From Candidatus Dormiibacterota bacterium (GTDB lineage Bacteria > Chloroflexota > Dormibacteria > Aeolococcales > Aeolococcaceae): a DNA stretch of 64,000 bases. Positions 2 to 63,585 of the stretch are shown in pieces. Position 1 is the first letter of the stretch. Each line of letters begins with the position of its first letter. Made by a program: the position numbers and the translations under genes. The stretch spans positions 391,643 through 455,642 of the forward strand of contig CAWHWM010000004.1 in assembly GCA_963833055.1 (NCBI GenBank), written 5' to 3'. Under the pieces are notes generated by a model. It saw only the letters and a list, made by a program, of their open reading frames with translations, was not told the DNA's origin and ran no database searches.

Positions 2-841
2 CACGCGGCGCGAACGCTCATCGACGCGGGGCTCGTCACGGTTGACGGCCGTCCGGGCAGGCCTGGACAGCGCATCCGCGAACGTGCTGACGTCGTGGTG
101 ACGCCGCCGGACGAGAAGGTTGCCGCAGCTGCGCGTGAGCGGAACCCAGGCGAGCCGGGGATCGAGTTGCGCATCGTCGATGAGGACGACTGGCTCGCCG
201 TCGTCGACAAGCCGTCCGGCATGGTGGTGCATCCCGCGCCGGGGCATCCCACCGGGACGCTCGCCGACGCGCTCAAGGAACGCGGGACCACCTGGTCGTT
301 GCTCGGCGGTGCGGAACGGGCAGGCATCGTGCACCGCCTCGACCGCGACACGAGCGGCCTGCTGGTCGTGGCCAAAACTGAGGCCGCGCACCGCAATCTT
401 GCCCGGCAGCTCAGCGACCGATCCCTCGGGCGCACGTACTGGGCGCTGGTCCACGGAGGGTTCCGTGAGGACACGGGGACGATCGACGCGCCGATCGCCC
501 GGCATCCGCGCGACCGTCGCCGAATGGCGATCGTCGAGGGAGGTCGTGAGGCGATGACGGACTTCCGCGTGGTGGAGCGGCTTGCAGGGGCCACCGTCCT
601 CGAGCTGTCCCTTCGCACCGGGCGCACGCATCAGATACGGGTGCATCTCGCATCGATCGGCCACCCGATCATCGGCGACTCCGTGTACGGACGGCCGGAT
701 CCGTTGCTCCACCGGCCCGCGTTGCATGCGATGCGGCTCCGGTTGCGCCATCCGGCCGACGGGTCGGAGCGGTCGTACGAGTCGCCGGTGCCGGATGAGC
801 TGGTGGCCGCGGCGAGCCGGCTCCGTCCGGCGGCTGTATGA
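2..841 (+). CDS. rluD: RluA-family 23S rRNA pseudouridine synthase (RluD-like); 5' end lies outside the window
   Basis: Reading frame is open from the window edge. S4-like stretch LIDAGLVTVDGRP, catalytic motif HRLDRDTSGLLVVAK, and C-terminal THQIRVHL. Confidence 0.85.
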   Translation, partial: HAARTLIDAGLVTVDGRPGRPGQRIRERADVVVTPPDEKVAAAARERNPGEPGIELRIVDEDDWLAVVDKPSGMVVHPAPGHPTGTLADALKERGTTWSLLGGAERAGIVHRLDRDTSGLLVVAKTEAAHRNLARQLSDRSLGRTYWALVHGGFREDTGTIDAPIARHPRDRRRMAIVEGGREAMTDFRVVERLAGATVLELSLRTGRTHQIRVHLASIGHPIIGDSVYGRPDPLLHRPALHAMRLRLRHPADGSERSYESPVPDELVAAASRLRPAAV

Positions 842-1133
842 GCGTGGTCGGCAGTGTGTGTGTTGACGCCGTGCGTTCGCGGTGAGATGGCGGTGTGAGC
901 GTGTCCAGCAGTGTGTTTCATAACGGCGCGAGCTTGTCGCGGGATGACGGTGTGAGCGTGCCCTGCGTTGTGTGTTTCTTGACGACGCGAGCCTGTCGTG
1001 GGATGACGGTGTGAGCGTGCCCTGCGTTGTGTGCGTGTTGACGGCGCGAGCCTGTCGTGGGATGACGGTGTGAGCGCGCCCGGCAGGTTCATCGTGTTGA
1101 CGGGGCCGAGTGGCTGTCGGCAAGGACACTGTG
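839..1133. repeat. 57-59 bp tandem array: 4 intergenic units plus a diverged fifth copy that is the gmk 5' end
   Basis: Units at 839-895, 896-952, 953-1011 and 1012-1070 each start TGAGCG and end GGTG. Units 3 and 4 are about 93% identical. Segment 1071-1133 (gmk start) aligns to the unit. Confidence 0.9.
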
Positions 1134-1658
1134 CTGCGGGAACTGTTCCAGCTCGATCCGGCGCTCACGTACTGCGTCTCGTACACCACGCGGCCGCCGC
1201 GTCCGGGGGAGATCGAGGGTGTGTCGTATTACTTCGTGGACGAGCCGACGTTCCGGTCGATGATCGATCGCGACGAGTTCTTCGAATGGTCGACCGTCTA
1301 CGGCGAGCTGAAGGGCCGGACGTTCGAGACCGTCAATAAGGCGATCGCCTCAGGCCGGGACACGGTGATCAAGATCGACGTCCAGGGAGCGGAGAAGGTT
1401 CGCGCCCGAGTGGGGGCACAGGGGACGTACATCTACCTGCTGCCACCGAGCCTCGAGGCACTGGAACAGCGCCTCGTCGAGCGCGCGACCGAGGATCCCG
1501 CCAGCCTTCGGGCTCGCAAGGAGCTGGCCGTCGCGGAGCTGGCCGTCAAGGACACGTACGATCATCAGGTGGTGAACGACGACGCACGGCGCGCGGCGCA
1601 GGAGATCGAGACGATCATCCAGGCCGTGCGGGCTGCCGGTGAGGGGGAGAAGGCATGA
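1070..1658 (+). pseudogene. gmk: Guanylate kinase with an apparent +1 frame disruption inside the P-loop (near 1115)
   Basis: GTG at 1070 gives VSAPGRFIVLTGPSG in frame 2. One extra nt follows, then VGKDTVLREL...VSYTTRPPRPGEIEGVSYYFV in frame 0 (ORF 1110-1658). Length is 589 nt (3n+1). Stop overlaps the coaBC ATG as ATGA. Confidence 0.8.
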
Positions 1659-2877
1659 CGCTGGAGCTCGAGGGCCATCGCGTCCTGGTCGGCGTCGGCG
1701 GCAGTGTGGCTGCGTTCAAGGCGTGCGAGGTGGTGACCGACCTGCGCCGCGATGGCGCCGAGGTGAGGGTCGCGATGACCGAGGCGGCAACGCGCTTCGT
1801 CACCCCGACCTTGCTGCGTGCGCTGAGCGGGCATCGGGTGGCGTCGAGCATGTGGGACGACGATCCCGAAGCCGGACACGGCATGAGCCACCTCGATCTC
1901 GCGTCGTGGTGCGAGGTGCAGGTGGTGGTGGCTGCGTCGGCCGACCTCCTCGCGCGGCTCGCGCTCGGGCTCGCCGGCGACCCGGTCACGGCGACGGCGC
2001 TCGCCTGTCGCGCTCCGTTGCTCGTGGCGCCGGCGATGGAATCGGCGATGTGGGAGCACCCGGCGACGCAGGGCCATGTGGCAACGCTCACCGCTCGGGG
2101 CGGCCGGATCATCGGTCCGGTGCACGGCAGGCTCGCGAGCGGTCACGAGAGCACCGGACGGATGGCCGAGCCCGATGCGATCGTTGCGGTGGTGAGGGAG
2201 TTCCTTGTCAGAGGGGCCTGACCCCAGACTTCTCCGGCCTGCGCTTCGTGGTCACCGCGGGAGGCACGCGGGAGCCGATCGACCCGGTGCGCTTCATCGG
2301 CAACCGGTCGAGCGGCAAGATGGGCAATGAGCTCGCCGCAGCCGCGATCCGCGAGGGCGCGGAGGTCACATTGATCACTGCCGCACCACCTCCGTCTGCG
2401 CAGGCGGGCCTCTCGGTGGTTGCAGTGGAAACAGCTGCCGACATGGACGCCGCCGTGCGCGCCGCGCTCCCCGGAGCGCGCGTGCTGATCATGGCTGCGG
2501 CGGTTGCCGACTGGCGCCCTCGCGATGTCGCAGGCCAGAAGCTCAAGAAGGGTGGGGAATCGATGAGCCTCGAGCTCGTGCCCACCATCGACATCCTTCG
2601 CGCACTCCGCGATGACGAGGTGGCGCGCGGTGTCTACATGGTCGGTTTCGCGGCCGAGACCGAGCACGTAATCGACAACGCGCGGGCGAAGCTCGATGCG
2701 AAGCATCTCGACCTGGTGGTCGTGAATGACGTGTCGCGCGAGGGCATTGGCATGGGGGCGGATGACAATGAGGTGACGGTGCTCGGCCGCGACGGGACGA
2801 TTGAGACCATTGCACGCGCGCCGAAATCTGTTGTGGCCGAGGCGATTGTGCGGATCATCGCGAGCAGGGTGCGATGA
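1655..2877 (+). pseudogene. coaBC: Bifunctional phosphopantothenoylcysteine decarboxylase/synthetase CoaBC, split by a -1 frame disruption near 2212-2220 (alternatively separate coaC and coaB)
   Basis: ORF 1655-2221 is the flavoprotein CoaC domain (VLVGVGGSVAAFKA). The frame of ORF 1639-2877 continues with the CoaB domain (FVVTAGGTREPIDPVRFIGNRSSGKMG). The junction lies at a GGGG run. Length is 3n+2. Confidence 0.8.
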
Positions 2878-3065
2878 CGTTGGGGTTTGCTGTCGGAGCG
2901 AATCGTGCGCGGGATTCTCTCAAGGCGTGGCCGTCTCGATGACGTTCGCATTTGCTATCGGAGCGAATCGTGCGCAGGACTTCTTGACGCGTGGCGGTCG
3001 CGATGACGTTTGCCTCTGTCGTGCCCGAAACGCGGTCACAGCTGCCGCGTGACGCGTACACGTAC
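2871..3065. repeat. 64-66 bp tandem array: 2 intergenic units plus the priA 5' end as a third diverged copy
   Basis: The block GATGACGTT recurs at 2873, 2938 and 3002, and TGACGCGT recurs near the unit ends. Each copy carries an ATG; ATGA overlaps occur at 2874-2877 and 2939-2942. Confidence 0.75.
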
Positions 3066-4995
3066 TCGATCCCTGACGACCTTGCCGAACTGGTGCTTCC
3101 CGGCGTGCGCGTCGAGATTCCGTTCGGCAAGCGATCGATCCTCGGGTACGTGGTGGAGCGAACGGAGGAGTCGGCGTTCGCGGAGGTCCGCGCCATCGAC
3201 GGCGTCATCGACGAACCGCGGCTCCTTCTCGATCACCACATCGCACTCGCGCGGCAGATCGCGGATCGGTACTGCGCGCCACTTGGCGAGGTGCTCCGGG
3301 CGATGCTGCCCAAGGGCGTGCGCACGCGCCCGTCGCGGCGCGCGGGTCCGCGGTCGATGTCACGCGCGGTTGCGGAGGCAGGCGCCGCCGGCCCACCGGA
3401 GCCGCCGCCGATCCTCAATGAGGCGCAACGCGCGGCGGTGGCGCCGCTGCTCGAGTCAATCGCGGCCCGCAAGCACCGCCGCGTCCTGCTCCACGGTGTG
3501 ACCGGGAGCGGGAAGACCGAGGTGTACCTCGCGGGCATCGATGCCGCCCTTGCGAAGGGGCGCGGCGCGATCGTCCTCGTACCCGAGATCGCGTTGACCC
3601 CGCAGATGATTCGCCGTTTCACCGTTCGATTTCCCGGGGCGGATTGCGGTGGTGCACTCGGCCCTCACGGACGCAGAGCGTGCGGCGGAGTGGCGGCGCA
3701 TCCGGAGCGGCGAGCACAGCGTTGTGATCGGCTCTCGCAGCGCCGTGTTCGCACCGGTGGCCGACCTCGGGATCGTTGTCGTCGACGAGGAGGACGCGCC
3801 TGCGTACAAGCAGGATCGCGTTCCGCGGTATCACGCCGTGGACGTCGCGTTGATGCTCGGCGCGCTGTGCGACGCGCCAGTCGTCATGGGAAGTGCGACC
3901 CCACGCGTCGAGAGTTTCTACCGCGCGCACACCGGTGATCTCGAGCTTGCCACGCTGCCGGAACGGGTGAGCGGCCGTCCGCTCCCACCGATCGAGGTGG
4001 TGGATCTGCGCGACGAGTTGCAGGCGGGCAACACCAACGCGCTGTCGCAGACCCTCGATCGTGCGCTGCAGGAATGTCATGCGGATGGCGGCCAGTCGAT
4101 CCTCTTTCTGAATCGCCGGGGCACCTCGACGGTGGTGCTGTGCCGCACGTGTGGCGAGGCACTGACCTGCACCAACTGCAGCGTGTCGTTGGTGCACCAC
4201 GTGGATCGCTCGAGCTGCGACTGCCACTACTGCGGGCTGTCGATCCCGCTGCCGAGTGCATGTCCGTCGTGCGGCTCGCGCACGATCCGCGCGCTCGGCA
4301 TGGGCACGGAGCGGCTCGAACGCGAGGTGCGCGAGCGGTTTCCGGCGCTCCGGCTCATCCGCATGGATCGCGACACCACGCGATCGCGCGACGCGTATTT
4401 CGACATCTATGACAAGTTCCGCCGCCACGAGGCGGACTGCCTCATCGGCACGCAGATGGTCGCGAAAGGATGGGATCTCGGCAATGTGCGTCTCGTCGGC
4501 ATCGTCAACGCCGATACGTCGCTCCACTTTCCTGACTATCGAAGTGGTGAGCTGACGTTCTCGCTGCTCACCCAGGTGGCCGGACGCGCCGGACGTGGCG
4601 ATGAGCCCGCGCGCGTGGTGCTCCAGACGTACAGCCCGGGTCACTACGCGGTCCGGCACGCCACCACGCATGACTATCTGGGGTTTGCGCGCGATGAGAT
4701 CCGCGTGCGCAAGGCACTGCGGTTTCCGCCGTACGCACGGCTCTGCGTCTGCACGTTCGTGCACAAGGAAGACCACGAAGCCGAGATCGAGGTTCGCCGG
4801 GAGGCCCAGCGAGTGTCTGATACACTCGGAATTGGCGACGGGCTCGATGTCCTCGGTCCGACGCCGGCGTTCCTCCACCGCCTGCGCGGCGAATACCGCT
4901 GGCAGTTCACGGTGCGGGGCAACAACATCGAGAGGGCATTTCCTCACCTTCCCAGGGCTCGGGGCTGGAGCATCGACGTCGACCCCGGGGCGTGA
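3003..4995 (+). pseudogene. priA: Primosomal replication-restart helicase PriA with a +1 frame disruption in the G-run at 3636-3639
   Basis: N-terminal ORF 2991-3938 carries Walker [12 protein letters not shown] and [13 protein letters not shown] 3649-4995 carries VVVDEE, Cys-rich zinc-finger motifs (CRTCGEALTCTNC, CHYCG, CPSCG) and the C-terminal domain. Length is 3n+1. GTG at 2991 is an alternative start. Confidence 0.85.
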
Positions 4996-5519: not shown

Positions 5520-6436
5520 GGCTCGTCTTCTGTGGCACTGCGGCATTCGCGGTGCCGTCGCTCCGAGCGTGCGCTGCTGACCACGAGGTGCTCGCGGTGG
5601 TCACTCGGGCCGATCGACTGGGGAACCGGGGGAAGCCGGCGCCGCGTCCCATCGCCGATGCTGCGCATGAGCTCCGCCTGCCCGTCCTGATGCCGCCGAA
5701 GATCGGAGCCCCCGAGGTGGTGCGAGGCCTGGTCGACCTCATCCCGGATTGCGTGGTGGTCGCCGCGTACGGGCAGATCCTGCCGATCTCGCTGCTCGAC
5801 CCGCTGCCGTTCGGCGCGGTCAACGTGCACGCCTCGCTCTTGCCGCGCTGGCGGGGAGCGTCGCCGATCGCCCGGGCGATCCTCGCCGGCGACGCCGAGA
5901 CCGGCGTCTCGATCATGCGCATGGAGGCGGGGCTGGACACCGGACCGGTTTACGCGACGGTGAGGGTGCCGATCGACGATGACGCCACCACGCCGGCGCT
6001 CACGAGCGTGCTCGCGGATCTCGGCGCCGCAGAGCTTGCCGCGGTGCTCAGGGCGCTCGAACATGGAGAGGCAACCGCGACGCCGCAGCCGGAGGATGGC
6101 GTGACCTATGCGGCGCGGCTGACCCGCGAGGATGGACAGGTGGACTGGGCAGCCCGCAGTGCGGTCGAGGTCGATCGCATGGTGCGTGCCCTGCAACCGT
6201 GGCCGGGAGTGGTGGCGCCGATCGATGGTGTGGAGGTCCAGATCCAGGCAGGCGGACCCGTGAGCCCGAACCTGGGGCTGGCGCCAGGGAGCATTGCCGG
6301 CCGCCAGGGCGAATCCGTGGTCATCGCCACTCGCGACGGCGGGTATCGCGTGGACCGGATCACCCCGCCCGGCAAACGCGCCATGGCACCCGCGGCGTGG
6401 ATGCGCGGCCGGCGTGCCGGCGAGGCGCCTCGCTGA
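5516..6436 (+). CDS. fmt: Methionyl-tRNA formyltransferase
   Basis: MRLVFCGT N-terminus, NVHASLLPRWRGASPI motif, and a C-terminal Fmt domain. GTGA overlap with the def stop. Confidence 0.9.
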   Translation: MRLVFCGTAAFAVPSLRACAADHEVLAVVTRADRLGNRGKPAPRPIADAAHELRLPVLMPPKIGAPEVVRGLVDLIPDCVVVAAYGQILPISLLDPLPFGAVNVHASLLPRWRGASPIARAILAGDAETGVSIMRMEAGLDTGPVYATVRVPIDDDATTPALTSVLADLGAAELAAVLRALEHGEATATPQPEDGVTYAARLTREDGQVDWAARSAVEVDRMVRALQPWPGVVAPIDGVEVQIQAGGPVSPNLGLAPGSIAGRQGESVVIATRDGGYRVDRITPPGKRAMAPAAWMRGRRAGEAPR

Positions 6437-11130: not shown

Positions 11131-11505
11131 GGGGGCGTACTGGTTTCGACGGGGTCGTGGGTTGTGCGAATGCGAGTCGAGCCCCGGGCTCGTAAAACCG
11201 GGAAAAATATACGTGCGAATAACGCACCCCTCGCCCTCGCTGCGTAAGTAGCAGAGACGAAAAAAGCTCAGGCTTCGGCCTGACGTCGACCGGCCCCTCG
11301 GCTGTGGGGGTCGGACCCGACGTTAATGCAAGCAGTCTCGCCGCCCGGTGGCGCCTCGGCGCCGGGCGGGACATTCACCGAGGCTGGCCGCAGCCGAGCC
11401 TGGTCCCAGGGCGCGATTGAGGTGAGATAAAAACCGGGACTACACTCGTAGATGTCGCATGGAACGCGGCTTCGGACCCGGGTTCGATCCCCGGCGCCTC
11501 CACCA
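11131..11505 (+). ncRNA. ssrA: tmRNA (SsrA), tag peptide ANNAPLALAA
   Basis: 5' GGGGGCGTACTGGTTTCGACGGGG and 3' GGTTCGATCCCCGGCGCCTCCACCA. The acceptor stem GGGGGCG/CGCCTCC contains a G3:U pair. Tag ORF is GCG AAT AAC GCA CCC CTC GCC CTC GCT GCG TAA at 11215-11247. Confidence 0.95.
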
Positions 11506-11563
11506 CGGTGGTTTGCTACCGAGAGTTGTACGGGTCCGAAAGAGGCCCAGATCGGCGATCTCG

Positions 11564-11690
11564 GCCGGCTGAGACGCAAGCTGCCTGCGGACCGCGTGCT
11601 GGTCGACGCCGGCTGAGCCGCAAGCTGCTTGCGGCCGTGTGCTAGCCGACGCCGGTTTGAGCCGCATATTTGGCACTGATGAGCGTGACG
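11564..11690. repeat. 43-44 bp tandem repeat, about 3 units, the last embedded in the 3' end of the minus-strand lipoprotein gene
   Basis: Units at 11564-11607, 11608-11650 and 11651 onward each start GCCGG(C/T)T(T)GAG. Unit 2 contains the hairpin GCCGCAAGC-T-GCTTGCGGC (11617-11635) and the gene's stop codon. Confidence 0.7.
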
Positions 11691-16106: not shown

Positions 16107-16673
16107 ATGTCTTTGGAGGTTGGCCGGCAGCAGCTGCGAGCGCTCTCCCATCCGCTCCGGGTGCGCATCCTTTCGCTCCTGACCGGGAGGGCGATGTCGA
16201 GCGCAGAGCTCGCCCGCGAGCTCGACATGCGCCATGCGGCGGTGAGCTTCCACGTGCGGCAACTGGCCGCCGCGGGATACCTCGAGCTCGTTGAGACGCG
16301 GTCGGTGCGCGGCGGTCAGGAACGCTGTTACCGCACGCGCGCGGCGGGCCAGGCGGAGTGGTCGCAGGAGGATCCTCGCCTGGTCATCCGCGCGGTCGGG
16401 GAGGAGGTCTCACGCCGCGCGGCGGACTCGCCTCCCAAGGCGTGGCGCCTGTTCGGTGACGCGGAGCTCTGGGTCGATCCGGCGGTCTGGGACGACACGG
16501 TGAAGCGGATCACGGCTGCGATGAATGACCTGCATGCGGCTGCGCTGGAGCCACGGACGCCGGAGGCGAAGCACGTGAGCGCGACGACCATGCTGTTCGC
16601 GATTGAGCCGGGCGGGCTTGGAGAGCCTGACGGGATGGATCCGGGCGCGCCGGCGACGCACGCATGCGGTTGA
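16107..16673 (+). CDS. ArsR-family winged-helix transcriptional regulator with a C-terminal extension
   Basis: LRALSHPLRVRILSLL...SSAELARELDMRHAAVSFHVRQLAAAGYLE. Confidence 0.8.
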   Translation: MSLEVGRQQLRALSHPLRVRILSLLTGRAMSSAELARELDMRHAAVSFHVRQLAAAGYLELVETRSVRGGQERCYRTRAAGQAEWSQEDPRLVIRAVGEEVSRRAADSPPKAWRLFGDAELWVDPAVWDDTVKRITAAMNDLHAAALEPRTPEAKHVSATTMLFAIEPGGLGEPDGMDPGAPATHACG

Positions 16674-16770
16674 TCCCAGCGCGCCAGCAACGCGACATGC
16701 GATCGACGCGGGCGCGCCAGAGACGCAGAACGCGAGCGACCAGGTCGCGCCAAAGAAGCAGAAGCGATGA
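16638..16770. repeat. 33-34 bp tandem array (4 clear units) spanning the arsR stop to the MFS start
   Basis: Units at 16638-16671, 16672-16704, 16705-16737 and 16738-16770 have consensus GA(T/C)C..G.CGCGCC.G..ACGC....GCGA. Adjacent units are 67-71% identical by hand count. The first unit ends in the arsR TGA and the last in the MFS ATGA. Confidence 0.8.
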
Positions 16771-18011
16771 GCAACGGGTCCGGGCGGAGGCGCGGACCGC
16801 TCGCGCACCGCAACTTCCAGCTGCTGGTCGGCTGCGACGTCACGTCGATGGTCGGCACCGCGATGGCCACTGTTGCGGTGCCGTTTGCGGTGTTGAAAAG
16901 TGGTGGCTCCGTCAGCGATGTCGGCTATGTCGCCGCCGCCGGACTGTTGCCCACGGTGGTGTTTCTGCTCTTCGGCGGAGTGGTCGCGGACCGCCTCCCG
17001 CGTCAGCGCGTCATGGTCGTGGCCAATATCGCGCAGGGACTGGCACAGGCCGGGTTTGCCGCGCTGGTGCTCACGGGGAGCGCGCAACTCTGGGAGATGA
17101 TGCTGCTGACCGCGGCTCGTGGGAGCGCGTTCGGCATGTACATGCCTGCCGCGCAAGGGCTCCTTCCGCAAACGGTGGATGCGGACCAACTCGCGTCTGC
17201 GAACGCGGTGCGCCGGGTGGGTCTCAACAGCGCGCAGATCGGTGGTGCCGCGCTCGGCGGCCTGGTGGTCGCCGTGGTCGGACCGGGGTGGGGTCTCGTC
17301 GCGGACGCCGCGAGCTATGCGATCGCCGGCGCTCTGCGCGCTGGAATGCGCTTCACCAACCTCCCGCCGATTGTGCGAACCGGCGTCATCAACGAACTTC
17401 GCGACGGATGGCACGCGTTCACCTCGCGCCGCTGGCTCTGGATCATCGTTGTGCAATTCGGCGTGGTCAATGCCATCTACGTCGGAACGTTCAGCGTGCT
17501 CGGCCCCGCGATCGCAGACCACAAACTCGGTGGGGCAGCGAGCTGGGGACTGATTGTCGCGGCGCAATCGGCCGGTGCAGTCATCGGCGCGGCACTCATG
17601 CTCCGGTATCGACCGGTGCGACTGCTCAACGCGGCCAGCCTCGCGGTGCCGCTCCTCGGGCTGCCGCTGTTCGCGCTTGCGGTTCCGCTCGTCGTCCCGC
17701 TGATCGCGCTCGCCGCACTCCTGGCCGGCATCGGCAGCGAGGTGTTCGAGGTGAACTGGAGCACTGCAATCCAGGAACAGATTCCACCCAACCTGCTCTC
17801 TCGCGTCGCTGCCTACGACGCGCTCGGCTCCTACGCGCTGAGCCCGATCGGCACCACCGTCGCCGGCCCGCTTGCGCTCGTCATCGGCACAGCGACCACG
17901 TTGATGGCCGGCGGCTTCGTCATCGTCATCTCAGCCCTGGTCGTCATCGGGGCGTCAGACATACGAAATCTGACCCGTGTGGCGAGCCGCGCCGGTACCA
18001 CGAGCACTTGA
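16767..18011 (+). CDS. MFS transporter (EntS/Mef-like MFS_3 type)
   Basis: The 414-aa product appears to have 12 TM segments. The N-terminus HRNFQLLVGCDVTSMVGTAMATVAVPF and the loop motif GGVVADRLPRQRVM fit this family. Confidence 0.85.
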   Translation: MSNGSGRRRGPLAHRNFQLLVGCDVTSMVGTAMATVAVPFAVLKSGGSVSDVGYVAAAGLLPTVVFLLFGGVVADRLPRQRVMVVANIAQGLAQAGFAALVLTGSAQLWEMMLLTAARGSAFGMYMPAAQGLLPQTVDADQLASANAVRRVGLNSAQIGGAALGGLVVAVVGPGWGLVADAASYAIAGALRAGMRFTNLPPIVRTGVINELRDGWHAFTSRRWLWIIVVQFGVVNAIYVGTFSVLGPAIADHKLGGAASWGLIVAAQSAGAVIGAALMLRYRPVRLLNAASLAVPLLGLPLFALAVPLVVPLIALAALLAGIGSEVFEVNWSTAIQEQIPPNLLSRVAAYDALGSYALSPIGTTVAGPLALVIGTATTLMAGGFVIVISALVVIGASDIRNLTRVASRAGTTST

Positions 18012-18568: not shown

Positions 18569-18760
18569 GTGCGAACAGTGTGGTGGGCTACTTGCGACGG
18601 TGCGCTGTGCGAACGCGAGTAGCTACATGCGGGCCGTGGGATCTGCGAATGCGAATAGCTACATGCGGCCGTCCGCTCTGCGAACGCGATTAGCTACAGC
18701 GGCCGTCCGCTCTGCGAACGCGAGTAGCTACATGCCACCGTCCGCTCTGCGAACAACTTC
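18569..18760. repeat. 34-38 bp tandem array, about 5.5 units, each containing the palindrome GTAGCTAC
   Basis: Units start at 18569, 18607, 18643, 18678, 18712 and 18747 (partial). Units 3 to 5 are about 89% identical, and the leftmost units are more diverged. There are no unique spacers between units. Confidence 0.85.
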
Positions 18761-18913
18761 TGTCGCGCGAAGTTGACCCCCGCACGCGATGCATTTGAAC
18801 ATCGGCCGGCGGTGGGCCGTCGGCCAGCCGCCAATCAACCGATCATCGCGCCGGGGCGGCGTGAAGCTGAGCGGAACCAGCCGATCGGCCCCGCAATGGC
18901 CGCAAAAGATCAA
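18728..18913 (-). CDS. Possible small zinc-ribbon protein (CxxC...CxxC)
   Basis: FCGHCG...KCIACG pattern. The start is TTG with no clear SD. The last 7 codons and the stop lie inside the 35-bp repeat array. The ORF is in frame with the upstream ABC ATPase stop codon. Confidence 0.3.
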   Translation of the reverse strand: MIFCGHCGADRLVPLSFTPPRRDDRLIGGWPTAHRRPMFKCIACGGQLRATEVVRRADGGM

Positions 18914-62907: not shown

Positions 62908-63585
62908 TCACGCGCGAGCCGTTCGCTCGCGCTCCGACTCCGCTCGTGCTGAGAACCATGCGAGGGTCGCCGGGAGCAGGAACGGAACGAGCAGCAGCCG
63001 CAGCCAGTCCCAGAGCGTGTTGCCCTGGAAGCCGGTCCAGCCCCAGTTCAGCGCGTAGCCGCCGACCACCACCACCACGAAGATCACCAACCCCGTGATG
63101 CCGACCACCCGCCAGCGGCTCTCGAAGCGCTTGTTCGTCGCGAACCAGAGCGGCAGCGACGCCACCACGATCGGCAGCGCCAGCAGCTCCAGCCAGTCCC
63201 ACAGCGTGTTGCCCTGGAAGCCGGTCCACTGCCAGTTCAGCGCGTAGCCGCCGATCACCAGCACCGCGAACGCCAGGACGACCACGCCGAACACGACGTG
63301 CCACTCCATCATCCAGCGCTGCCGCGTGCGGTACCAGAGCGGCAGTGTCGCGAGCACCACCGGCAGCACGATCACGTGGAGGAGATCCCAGAGCTGGTCG
63401 CTCGGGGTCACGCCGGTCCACGTCCAGTGGAACTCGTACCCGCCGATCAGCGCGATCGTGAGGGCGATCACCCCGCCCGGGAGCACCCATTTGATCAGCG
63501 GCGAGATCGGTTGCGCCGTCGTGTTGCGCGTTCGTGCGAGATCCACGCCGGGAATGATGCCAGTGCTAGCGCAGGGTGTTGGCAA
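62908..63585 (-). CDS. Membrane protein built from three tandem repeats of about 63 aa (GGYxxxWxWTGFxGNTLWDWLxLL...LPLW)
   Basis: The repeats are visible at protein level. Repeats 2 and 3 are also visible at nucleotide level: 63001-63060 versus 63190-63249, offset 189 nt, about 93% identity. Confidence 0.7.
   Translation of the reverse strand: MPTPCASTGIIPGVDLARTRNTTAQPISPLIKWVLPGGVIALTIALIGGYEFHWTWTGVTPSDQLWDLLHVIVLPVVLATLPLWYRTRQRWMMEWHVVFGVVVLAFAVLVIGGYALNWQWTGFQGNTLWDWLELLALPIVVASLPLWFATNKRFESRWRVVGITGLVIFVVVVVGGYALNWGWTGFQGNTLWDWLRLLLVPFLLPATLAWFSARAESERERTARA

Follow-up and report, generated by a model that had tools for sequence, protein, structure and literature searches.

The interval between the rluD stop codon (TGA 839-841) and the gmk start codon (GTG 1070) in the Dormibacterota DNA analyzed here (the window, meaning the whole stretch of 64,000 nt) is filled by four head-to-tail units, and we conclude that this array is probably a locally generated tandem duplication at a gene junction whose copy number varies. 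The units match the 5' end of the gene that they precede, other species join the two genes without a spacer, conspecific populations carry a different number of units, and no dispersed copies were found in the sequences searched.

Four tandem units lie between rluD and gmk

The 5' side of rluD lies beyond the window start; the full-length conspecific product is a 304-aa protein with S4 and PseudoU_synth_2 domains. At the other end of the array, GTG 1070 of gmk overlaps TGA 1071-1073, and conspecific Gmk proteins (195 aa) begin VSAPGRFIVLTGPSGVGKDTV at the equivalent GTG. The features of the region are as follows.

2-841, plus strand: 3' part of the gene for an RluD-type pseudouridine synthase (Pfam PseudoU_synth_2, E 3e-36)
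838-841, plus strand: ATGA, the ancestral rluD-stop/gmk-start overlap, which today starts the mini-ORF at 838-885 and is joined directly to gmk in ~34 of 37 relatives
839-895, plus strand: unit 1, 57 nt, the most diverged unit and the window unit nearest (75%) to the conspecific unit S
896-952, plus strand: unit 2, 57 nt
953-1011, plus strand: unit 3, 59 nt
1012-1070, plus strand: unit 4, 59 nt, 55/59 identical to unit 3 and the unit nearest the gmk 5' end
838-885, plus strand: mini-ORF 1, encoding MSVVGSVCVDAVRSR followed by a stop
895-1014, plus strand: mini-ORF 2, 39 aa, with a stop that overlaps GTG 1011
1011-1073, plus strand: mini-ORF 3, 20 aa, with a stop that overlaps the gmk GTG 1070
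1070-1658, plus strand: gmk (guanylate kinase; Pfam Guanylate_kin, E 1e-32 over 1110-1655)
1115, plus strand: extra T in the P-loop codons (GGC-T-GTC), absent from all relatives and a probable assembly indel

Tandem Repeats Finder, run on the window, reported a period of 59 with 3.4 copies and 87% matches at 882-1081, and a second repeat finder recovered four in-register copies at spacings of 57, 59, and 59. Together with direct comparison of the units, which all start with TGAGCG and end with GGTG, these searches reproduced the four units delineated by a first-pass annotation made by reading the sequence. That annotation had also described units 3 and 4 as differing at about 4 of 59 positions and units 1 and 2 as progressively more diverged, which agrees with the measured identities to unit 4 (55/59 for unit 3, 47/57 for unit 2, and 42/57 for unit 1). 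Over all pairs, the four units differ at 7 to 26% of positions.

The units match the 5' end of gmk

The proposal that the units are built from the gmk 5' end was put to a shuffle control, and the similarity proved to be far above that of shuffled sequence. The local alignment score of unit 4 against gmk 1071-1140 was 29, relative to a mean of 15.1 (standard deviation, 2.6) for dinucleotide shuffles; this score was attained by 2 of 5,000 shuffles and by none of the 17,896 further window segments. When the shared first 11 nt were removed, the remainders of the units still matched the gmk 5' end (scores equaled by 2/5,000 shuffles for unit 4, 28/5,000 for unit 1, and 61/5,000 for unit 2). In addition, the 11-mer CGTGTTGACGG occurs at both 1034 and 1093, exactly 59 nt apart.

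In a multiple alignment, all of the window units, the conspecific unit S, the unit of a more distant relative (L035), and the 5' ends of five gmk genes fell into a single collinear frame ~62 columns wide. Among the blocks common to the units and gmk are the IVLTGPSGVGK codons, conserved across all orthologues. Because the collinear match of each unit to the gmk 5' end takes in these conserved P-loop codons, the direction of copying is from gene to repeat. These comparisons support the view that the first ~20 gmk codons were duplicated repeatedly to give the units, which are of local origin rather than members of a dispersed family. The last ~13 nt of each unit could correspond either to gmk codons 18-21 or to the rluD 3' end, with the multiple alignment favoring gmk. 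A CTGT microhomology at the ends of the duplication is seen with the rluD tail of the window only (conspecifics have CCGT or CGGT), and a role for it is speculative.

The array is a derived insertion, and its copy number differs among conspecifics

A Gmk protein search with one genome per species yielded 38 loci labeled as, or clearly belonging to, Candidatus Dormibacterota, the best of them at 87% amino acid identity. We read the 330 nt upstream of gmk at each locus, and 37 loci were informative. At ~34 of these 37, the rluD stop codon overlaps the gmk start codon directly (ATGA, GTGA, or TTGA) with no spacer; the remaining informative loci comprise one with a TGATG overlap, one with a different upstream gene, and one (L035) that carries one additional unit of 40 nt. 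When 10 genomes were aligned, the array emerged as an insertion of 232 nt that only the window has. Given that rluD and gmk lack a spacer in ~34 of 37 relatives, the array is a derived, lineage-specific insertion, and the gmk 5' end is its source. Along with the collinear alignment over 62 nt, these spacer-less relatives upheld the earlier suggestion that the first 20 or so codons of gmk, P-loop included, had been duplicated.

A further protein search found a cluster of Gmk sequences 98% identical to that of the window. The contigs of this cluster (L116-L123) come from one Logan run and seven JGI metagenomes, and four of them (L117, L119, L120, and L122) aligned to the window over several kilobases at 94 to 97% DNA identity. 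All nine of the nine conspecific contigs examined, from eight short-read metagenomes, carry exactly one extra unit, the 61-nt unit S (TGAGCGTGCTTCGGAGTGTGTTGTGGGGACGGCGCGCGTCGGCGCTGATGCGGTGACGGTG), flanked by the rluD ATGA and the gmk GTGA. Unit S is 75% identical to unit 1 and 70 to 72% identical to units 2 to 4 (differences of 25 to 30%). It shares with the window units several changes relative to gmk: GTGTG for GTTCA, GGCGCG for GGGGCC, the tail GACGGTG, and a GTG start of gmk.

The number of extra units thus runs from zero in other species to one in conspecifics and four in the window as relatedness increases. The locus is VNTR-like in that copy number differs among conspecifics, with the four-unit allele coming from one assembly only; the VNTR behavior that had been put forward as a check is therefore seen as one extra unit in nine conspecific contigs versus four in the window. 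Because S differs from the window units far more than the flanking sequences differ (the flanks of the window and L117 are 97.7% identical, while S is only 70 to 75% identical to the units), simple expansion of S into the window array is unsupported, and the history may be more complex. Judging from the divergence of S and from a conspecific variant with a 1-nt indel (P0128, described below), the unit evidently evolves freely.

The extra unit of L035, a more distant Dormibacterota metagenome-assembled genome (MAG; 83% DNA identity), lies between rluD and gmk at L035 3920-3959 (TGAGCGCGCC...GGCGGTG). It may have arisen independently or go back to an old shared event.

A second array occupies the coaB-priA junction

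The first-pass annotation had taken the other junctions of the operon to be free of repeats, overlooking a second array.

2874-3002, plus strand: coaB-priA array of two units, 2874-2938 (65 nt) and 2939-3002 (64 nt), with 72% self-similarity at offset 65

This array is bounded by the coaB stop codon (TGA 2875-2877) and the priA start codon (ATG 3003). Both of its units begin ATGACGTT, as does priA itself, and they are unrelated in sequence to the units of the gmk array. An alignment with nine relatives, in which the coaB TGA overlaps the priA ATG directly, showed the array to be a 129-nt insertion in the window; the same two units are present in the conspecific contigs L117 and L122. The units were likely derived from priA, less securely than in the case of gmk because their similarity to the priA 5' end past the first 11 nt is weak (equaled by 161/5,000 and 662/5,000 shuffles).

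A further, independent junction duplication was found in a different Dormibacterota MAG (L028), an Illumina short-read assembly in which 26 nt are tandemly duplicated across the coaB-priA ATGA at 5747-5798 (CGTCTGCAATGACCCTCACCACGGGC then CGTCCGCAATGACCTTCGCCTCGGTC). Duplications across junctions have therefore occurred more than once in the phylum and are not confined to one assembler. A self-similarity scan of 39 relatives (317 kb) found a single tandem repeat.

The gene upstream of priA had been assumed to be a fused coaBC, but coaC and coaB are separate genes in the window and in all relatives. coaB starts at TTG 2205 (region 2190-2225), overlapping the coaC stop codon behind a conserved Shine-Dalgarno sequence, GAGGGAG.

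Altogether, the window holds six tandem arrays: two that span gene junctions, two that are in-frame coding repeats, and two that are truly intergenic. Apart from the two junction arrays, these are as follows.

11131-11666: a tmRNA gene (tag ANNAPLALAA), with a 44-nt tandem repeat of 2.3 copies ~40 nt downstream
16641-16771: a 33-nt repeat that seems intergenic but codes in frame for 11-aa repeats (DPGAPATHHAV-like) in the C-terminal tail of an ArsR-family regulator; it ends in an ATGA overlap with a gene for a major facilitator superfamily (MFS) transporter
18587-18772: a 35-nt tandem array of ~4.8 copies (85% matches), intergenic after a HEAT-repeat gene, with more diverged copies upstream
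62962-63395, minus strand: a 189-nt in-frame repeat in the gene for a predicted membrane protein that matches no Pfam family; it encodes three ~63-aa repeats (GGYxLNWxWTG...LWDWL...LP)

The ArsR tail carries zero or one repeat unit in more distant homologues. We considered 16663-16771 as a third intergenic junction array and rejected it on the evidence of a conspecific contig, which shows an in-frame ArsR-tail repeat; the apparent ArsR stop codon at 16671 results from an inserted G.

Probable consensus errors in the window do not account for the array

The gmk start at GTG 1070 assigned by the first-pass annotation stands, but the reading frame is not intact, a point that had gone unnoticed. 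Where relatives have GAGTGGCGTCGGCAAG (GPSGVGK), the window has GAGTGGCTGTCGGCAAG, and because of the extra T at 1115, the ORF from GTG 1070 leaves the kinase frame after GPSG; the remainder of Gmk is read in the frame of the ORF at 1110-1658. We also considered whether T1115 is an old frameshift shared with the CTGTCG of the units. This idea was discarded, since the T in the units replaces a C without adding length and all of the conspecific gmk genes lack the T.

Similar differences from short-read contigs of 97 to 98% identity occur elsewhere. Relative to the 97.7%-identical contig L117, the window has bases inserted at 1115, 2230, and 3629 and one base missing at 2981, and relative to L124, it has a G inserted at 16662. 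The insertions (T1115, T2230, A3629, and G16662) break gmk, coaB, priA, and the arsR-type gene, three of which have essential functions, while the deletion at 2981 falls in the noncoding array between coaB and priA, where it reduces the second unit from 65 nt to 64 nt. A single NCBI/ENA contig of 482,030 nt is on record with the exact CoaC of the window and with a Gmk call truncated to 175 aa. These single-base indels are most likely consensus errors of a long-read MAG, and the comparison flags the insertions as falsely breaking four genes in this assembly.

Such errors raise the question of whether the four-unit array is itself an artifact of an error-prone long-read MAG, the true locus being the single unit of the short-read contigs. 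At least four gene-breaking single-base insertions and the deletion at 2981, all absent from conspecific contigs, speak for this explanation, as does the presence of one unit in 9 of 9 independent conspecific contigs. We nevertheless regard it as quite unlikely. An artifactual duplication yields identical copies and therefore cannot create diverged units, and those of the window are 7 to 26% apart from one another and 25 to 30% from S, which is not a chimera of units 1 and 4. Moreover, two Illumina contigs have just as many copies in the neighboring coaB-priA array. As far as the sequences allow us to judge, consensus indel errors cannot explain a 232-nt array of units that differ to this extent.

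The mini-ORF relay does not point to a selected regulatory device

The mini-ORFs at 838-885, 895-1014, and 1011-1073 and their ATGA and GTGA overlaps are present as the first-pass annotation had it. They raise the possibility that the array is a selected regulatory device, in which a mini-ORF relay, a leader peptide, or an RNA structure tunes gmk relative to rluD and copy number acts as a rheostat. An unbroken chain of ORFs does lead from the rluD stop codon to the gmk start codon in both the four-unit and the one-unit alleles; in the S allele, it consists of an ORF of 18 aa whose end lies 4 nt before the gmk GTG. However, a comparable relay arises in 53 to 82% of dinucleotide-shuffled window spacers and in 39 to 63% of those shuffled from S, so the relay is uninformative about selection, and we rejected it as evidence of selected translational coupling.

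The periods of the units bear on the same question. A period of 3n - 1, which regenerates the 4-nt overlap in each copy, had been proposed for the array as a whole. It is found in units 3 and 4 and in both of the 65-nt coaB-priA units of L117, which would favor a regulatory device, but not in units 1 and 2 (57 nt), the 61-nt S allele, or the 40-nt unit of L035. The peptides of the mini-ORFs show no conservation, and indels shift their frames; in the conspecific variant P0128, one extra base fuses the mini-ORF to gmk to give a product of 208 aa.

Searches for other regulatory features were likewise negative. No Rfam family was found, a permissive E value giving only a chance microRNA match at 3166-3227, and no stable RNA fold was found at 830-1135, which is less stable than its shuffles (z score, +1.6). 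Neither promoter-like nor terminator-like sites were found at 600-3200, in keeping with the earlier expectation that none would part rluD from gmk. Taken together, these results make a selected regulatory device very unlikely, and the gmk array is most likely near-neutral.

An ORF of 153 aa on the minus strand (631-1092) was evaluated as a repeat protein and dismissed: it overlaps 210 nt of rluD, fails a codon-position GC filter, is impossible in relatives without the array, and is absent from the protein collection.

The array resembles mycobacterial interspersed repetitive units in architecture only

The first-pass annotation had likened the array to MIRUs while deriving its unit from the local gene. 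Of the systems described so far, MIRUs come nearest. A 2025 review (PMC12548453) portrays them as repeats, apparently mobile, whose insertion at start codons couples an internal ORF to the gene at -4 nt. The likeness holds for architecture, as an analogy. Like MIRUs, which are tandem units of 40 to 100 bp within an operon and in the same orientation as its genes, the array consists of units of 57 to 59 nt between the co-oriented rluD and gmk; its small ORFs overlap the flanking stop and start codons (ATGA 838-841 and GTGA 1011-1014 and 1070-1073); and its copy number varies among strains.

The likeness fails for dispersal. MIRUs form a sequence-related family at dozens of loci in Actinomycetota, whereas the host here belongs to Dormibacterota and the window's junction arrays correspond to the 5' ends of their own downstream genes. 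No copy of the gmk-array unit with up to 3 mismatches was found elsewhere in the 64-kb window, none was found at a second locus in 317 kb of relatives, and the units of the window's other arrays are unrelated to it. A metagenome scan for two junction motifs 44 to 50 nt apart returned 46 stretches, which we rejected as copies of the unit because none of the 46 was related to it by BLAST. The local gene thus stands as the source, as the annotation had proposed. Because the dispersal that defines the family was sought in these sequences and not found, the array does not appear to be a member of the MIRU family and is best classed as an intercistronic VNTR of local origin. Insertion of a dispersed and possibly mobile MIRU-type repeat, with its own coupled mini-ORF, at the gmk start codon would fit the architecture and the copy number difference between conspecifics, but it is extremely unlikely given that no second locus was found, that the motif-matching stretches and other arrays are unrelated, and that all units align in order with the start of gmk through its conserved P-loop codons, which indicates a gene-to-repeat direction.

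The array can also be compared with ordinary bacterial VNTRs and microduplications, which arise by replication slippage or unequal recombination. As in these, the units are head to tail, the youngest copies resemble each other most, close relatives differ in copy number, and no protein machinery is associated with the repeat. Unlike ordinary VNTRs, the duplicated segment spans the stop/start overlap of two genes of an essential operon, such that an overlapping pair has become a spaced pair and pseudo-5' ends of an essential gene, including its P-loop codons, remain. In-frame coding repeats at gene ends offer another comparison within the same genome. The 33-nt repeat of the ArsR tail likewise terminates in an ATGA that overlaps the next gene, but its period is divisible by three and it is translated as an 11-aa repeat, whereas the gmk array lies outside both flanking genes. 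We found nothing in the literature on tandem repeats in Dormibacterota.

Proposed origin and implications

A local duplication would have started from an ancestor in which the rluD stop codon and the gmk start codon overlapped in ATGA. A segment of ~62 nt, from the overlap through gmk codon 21 and including the P-loop codons, would have been duplicated in tandem, keeping rluD whole in the first copy and gmk whole in the last. Since such a junction-spanning duplication leaves both genes intact, it is among the few small duplications that a tightly packed operon can tolerate. Once in tandem, the segment could have expanded and contracted by slippage or unequal recombination; most of the conspecific populations sampled carry one extra unit, and this genome carries four. 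The nonfunctional upstream copies would then decay through substitutions, indels, and growth of a GT tract. Each unit inherits a start/stop overlap and a Shine-Dalgarno-like GGGA ~7 nt upstream (from the AAGGA of Lys-Asp codons), and it may be speculated that this inheritance helps gmk translation survive the insertion.

Besides the divergence of S, two observations weigh against this account. The four-unit allele is known from one assembly only, a single 482-kb contig that carries indel errors. In addition, two arrays occur in one operon of this lineage, relative to almost none in 39 relatives (317 kb), which hints at something lineage specific beyond neutrality alone. We infer that the six arrays of the window fit a selection filter under which other small duplications in a spacer-less operon would mostly disrupt a gene. 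The process behind the gmk array is an ordinary one, and the case is tidy and somewhat instructive but not very surprising.

A bolder interpretation is that junction-spanning duplications are the birth stage of MIRU-like repeats and that their copy number tunes the coupling of gmk and priA to the upstream neighbor, giving strain-level expression variants in Dormibacterota. We consider this a long shot; if it were true, a repeat born from the 5' end of a gene would bring with it a ready-made start/stop overlap and a Shine-Dalgarno-like motif.

Whatever the fate of that idea, the rluD-gmk locus offers a datable example of an intercistronic tandem repeat that arose locally, with zero, one, and four extra copies all observable in public data and a second case in the same operon. 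It could also serve to mark strains of this Dormibacterota species. The stop/start overlaps in such repeats can be explained without mobility, in that only junction-spanning duplications spare both genes, and junction duplication is thus a useful null model for MIRU-like elements.
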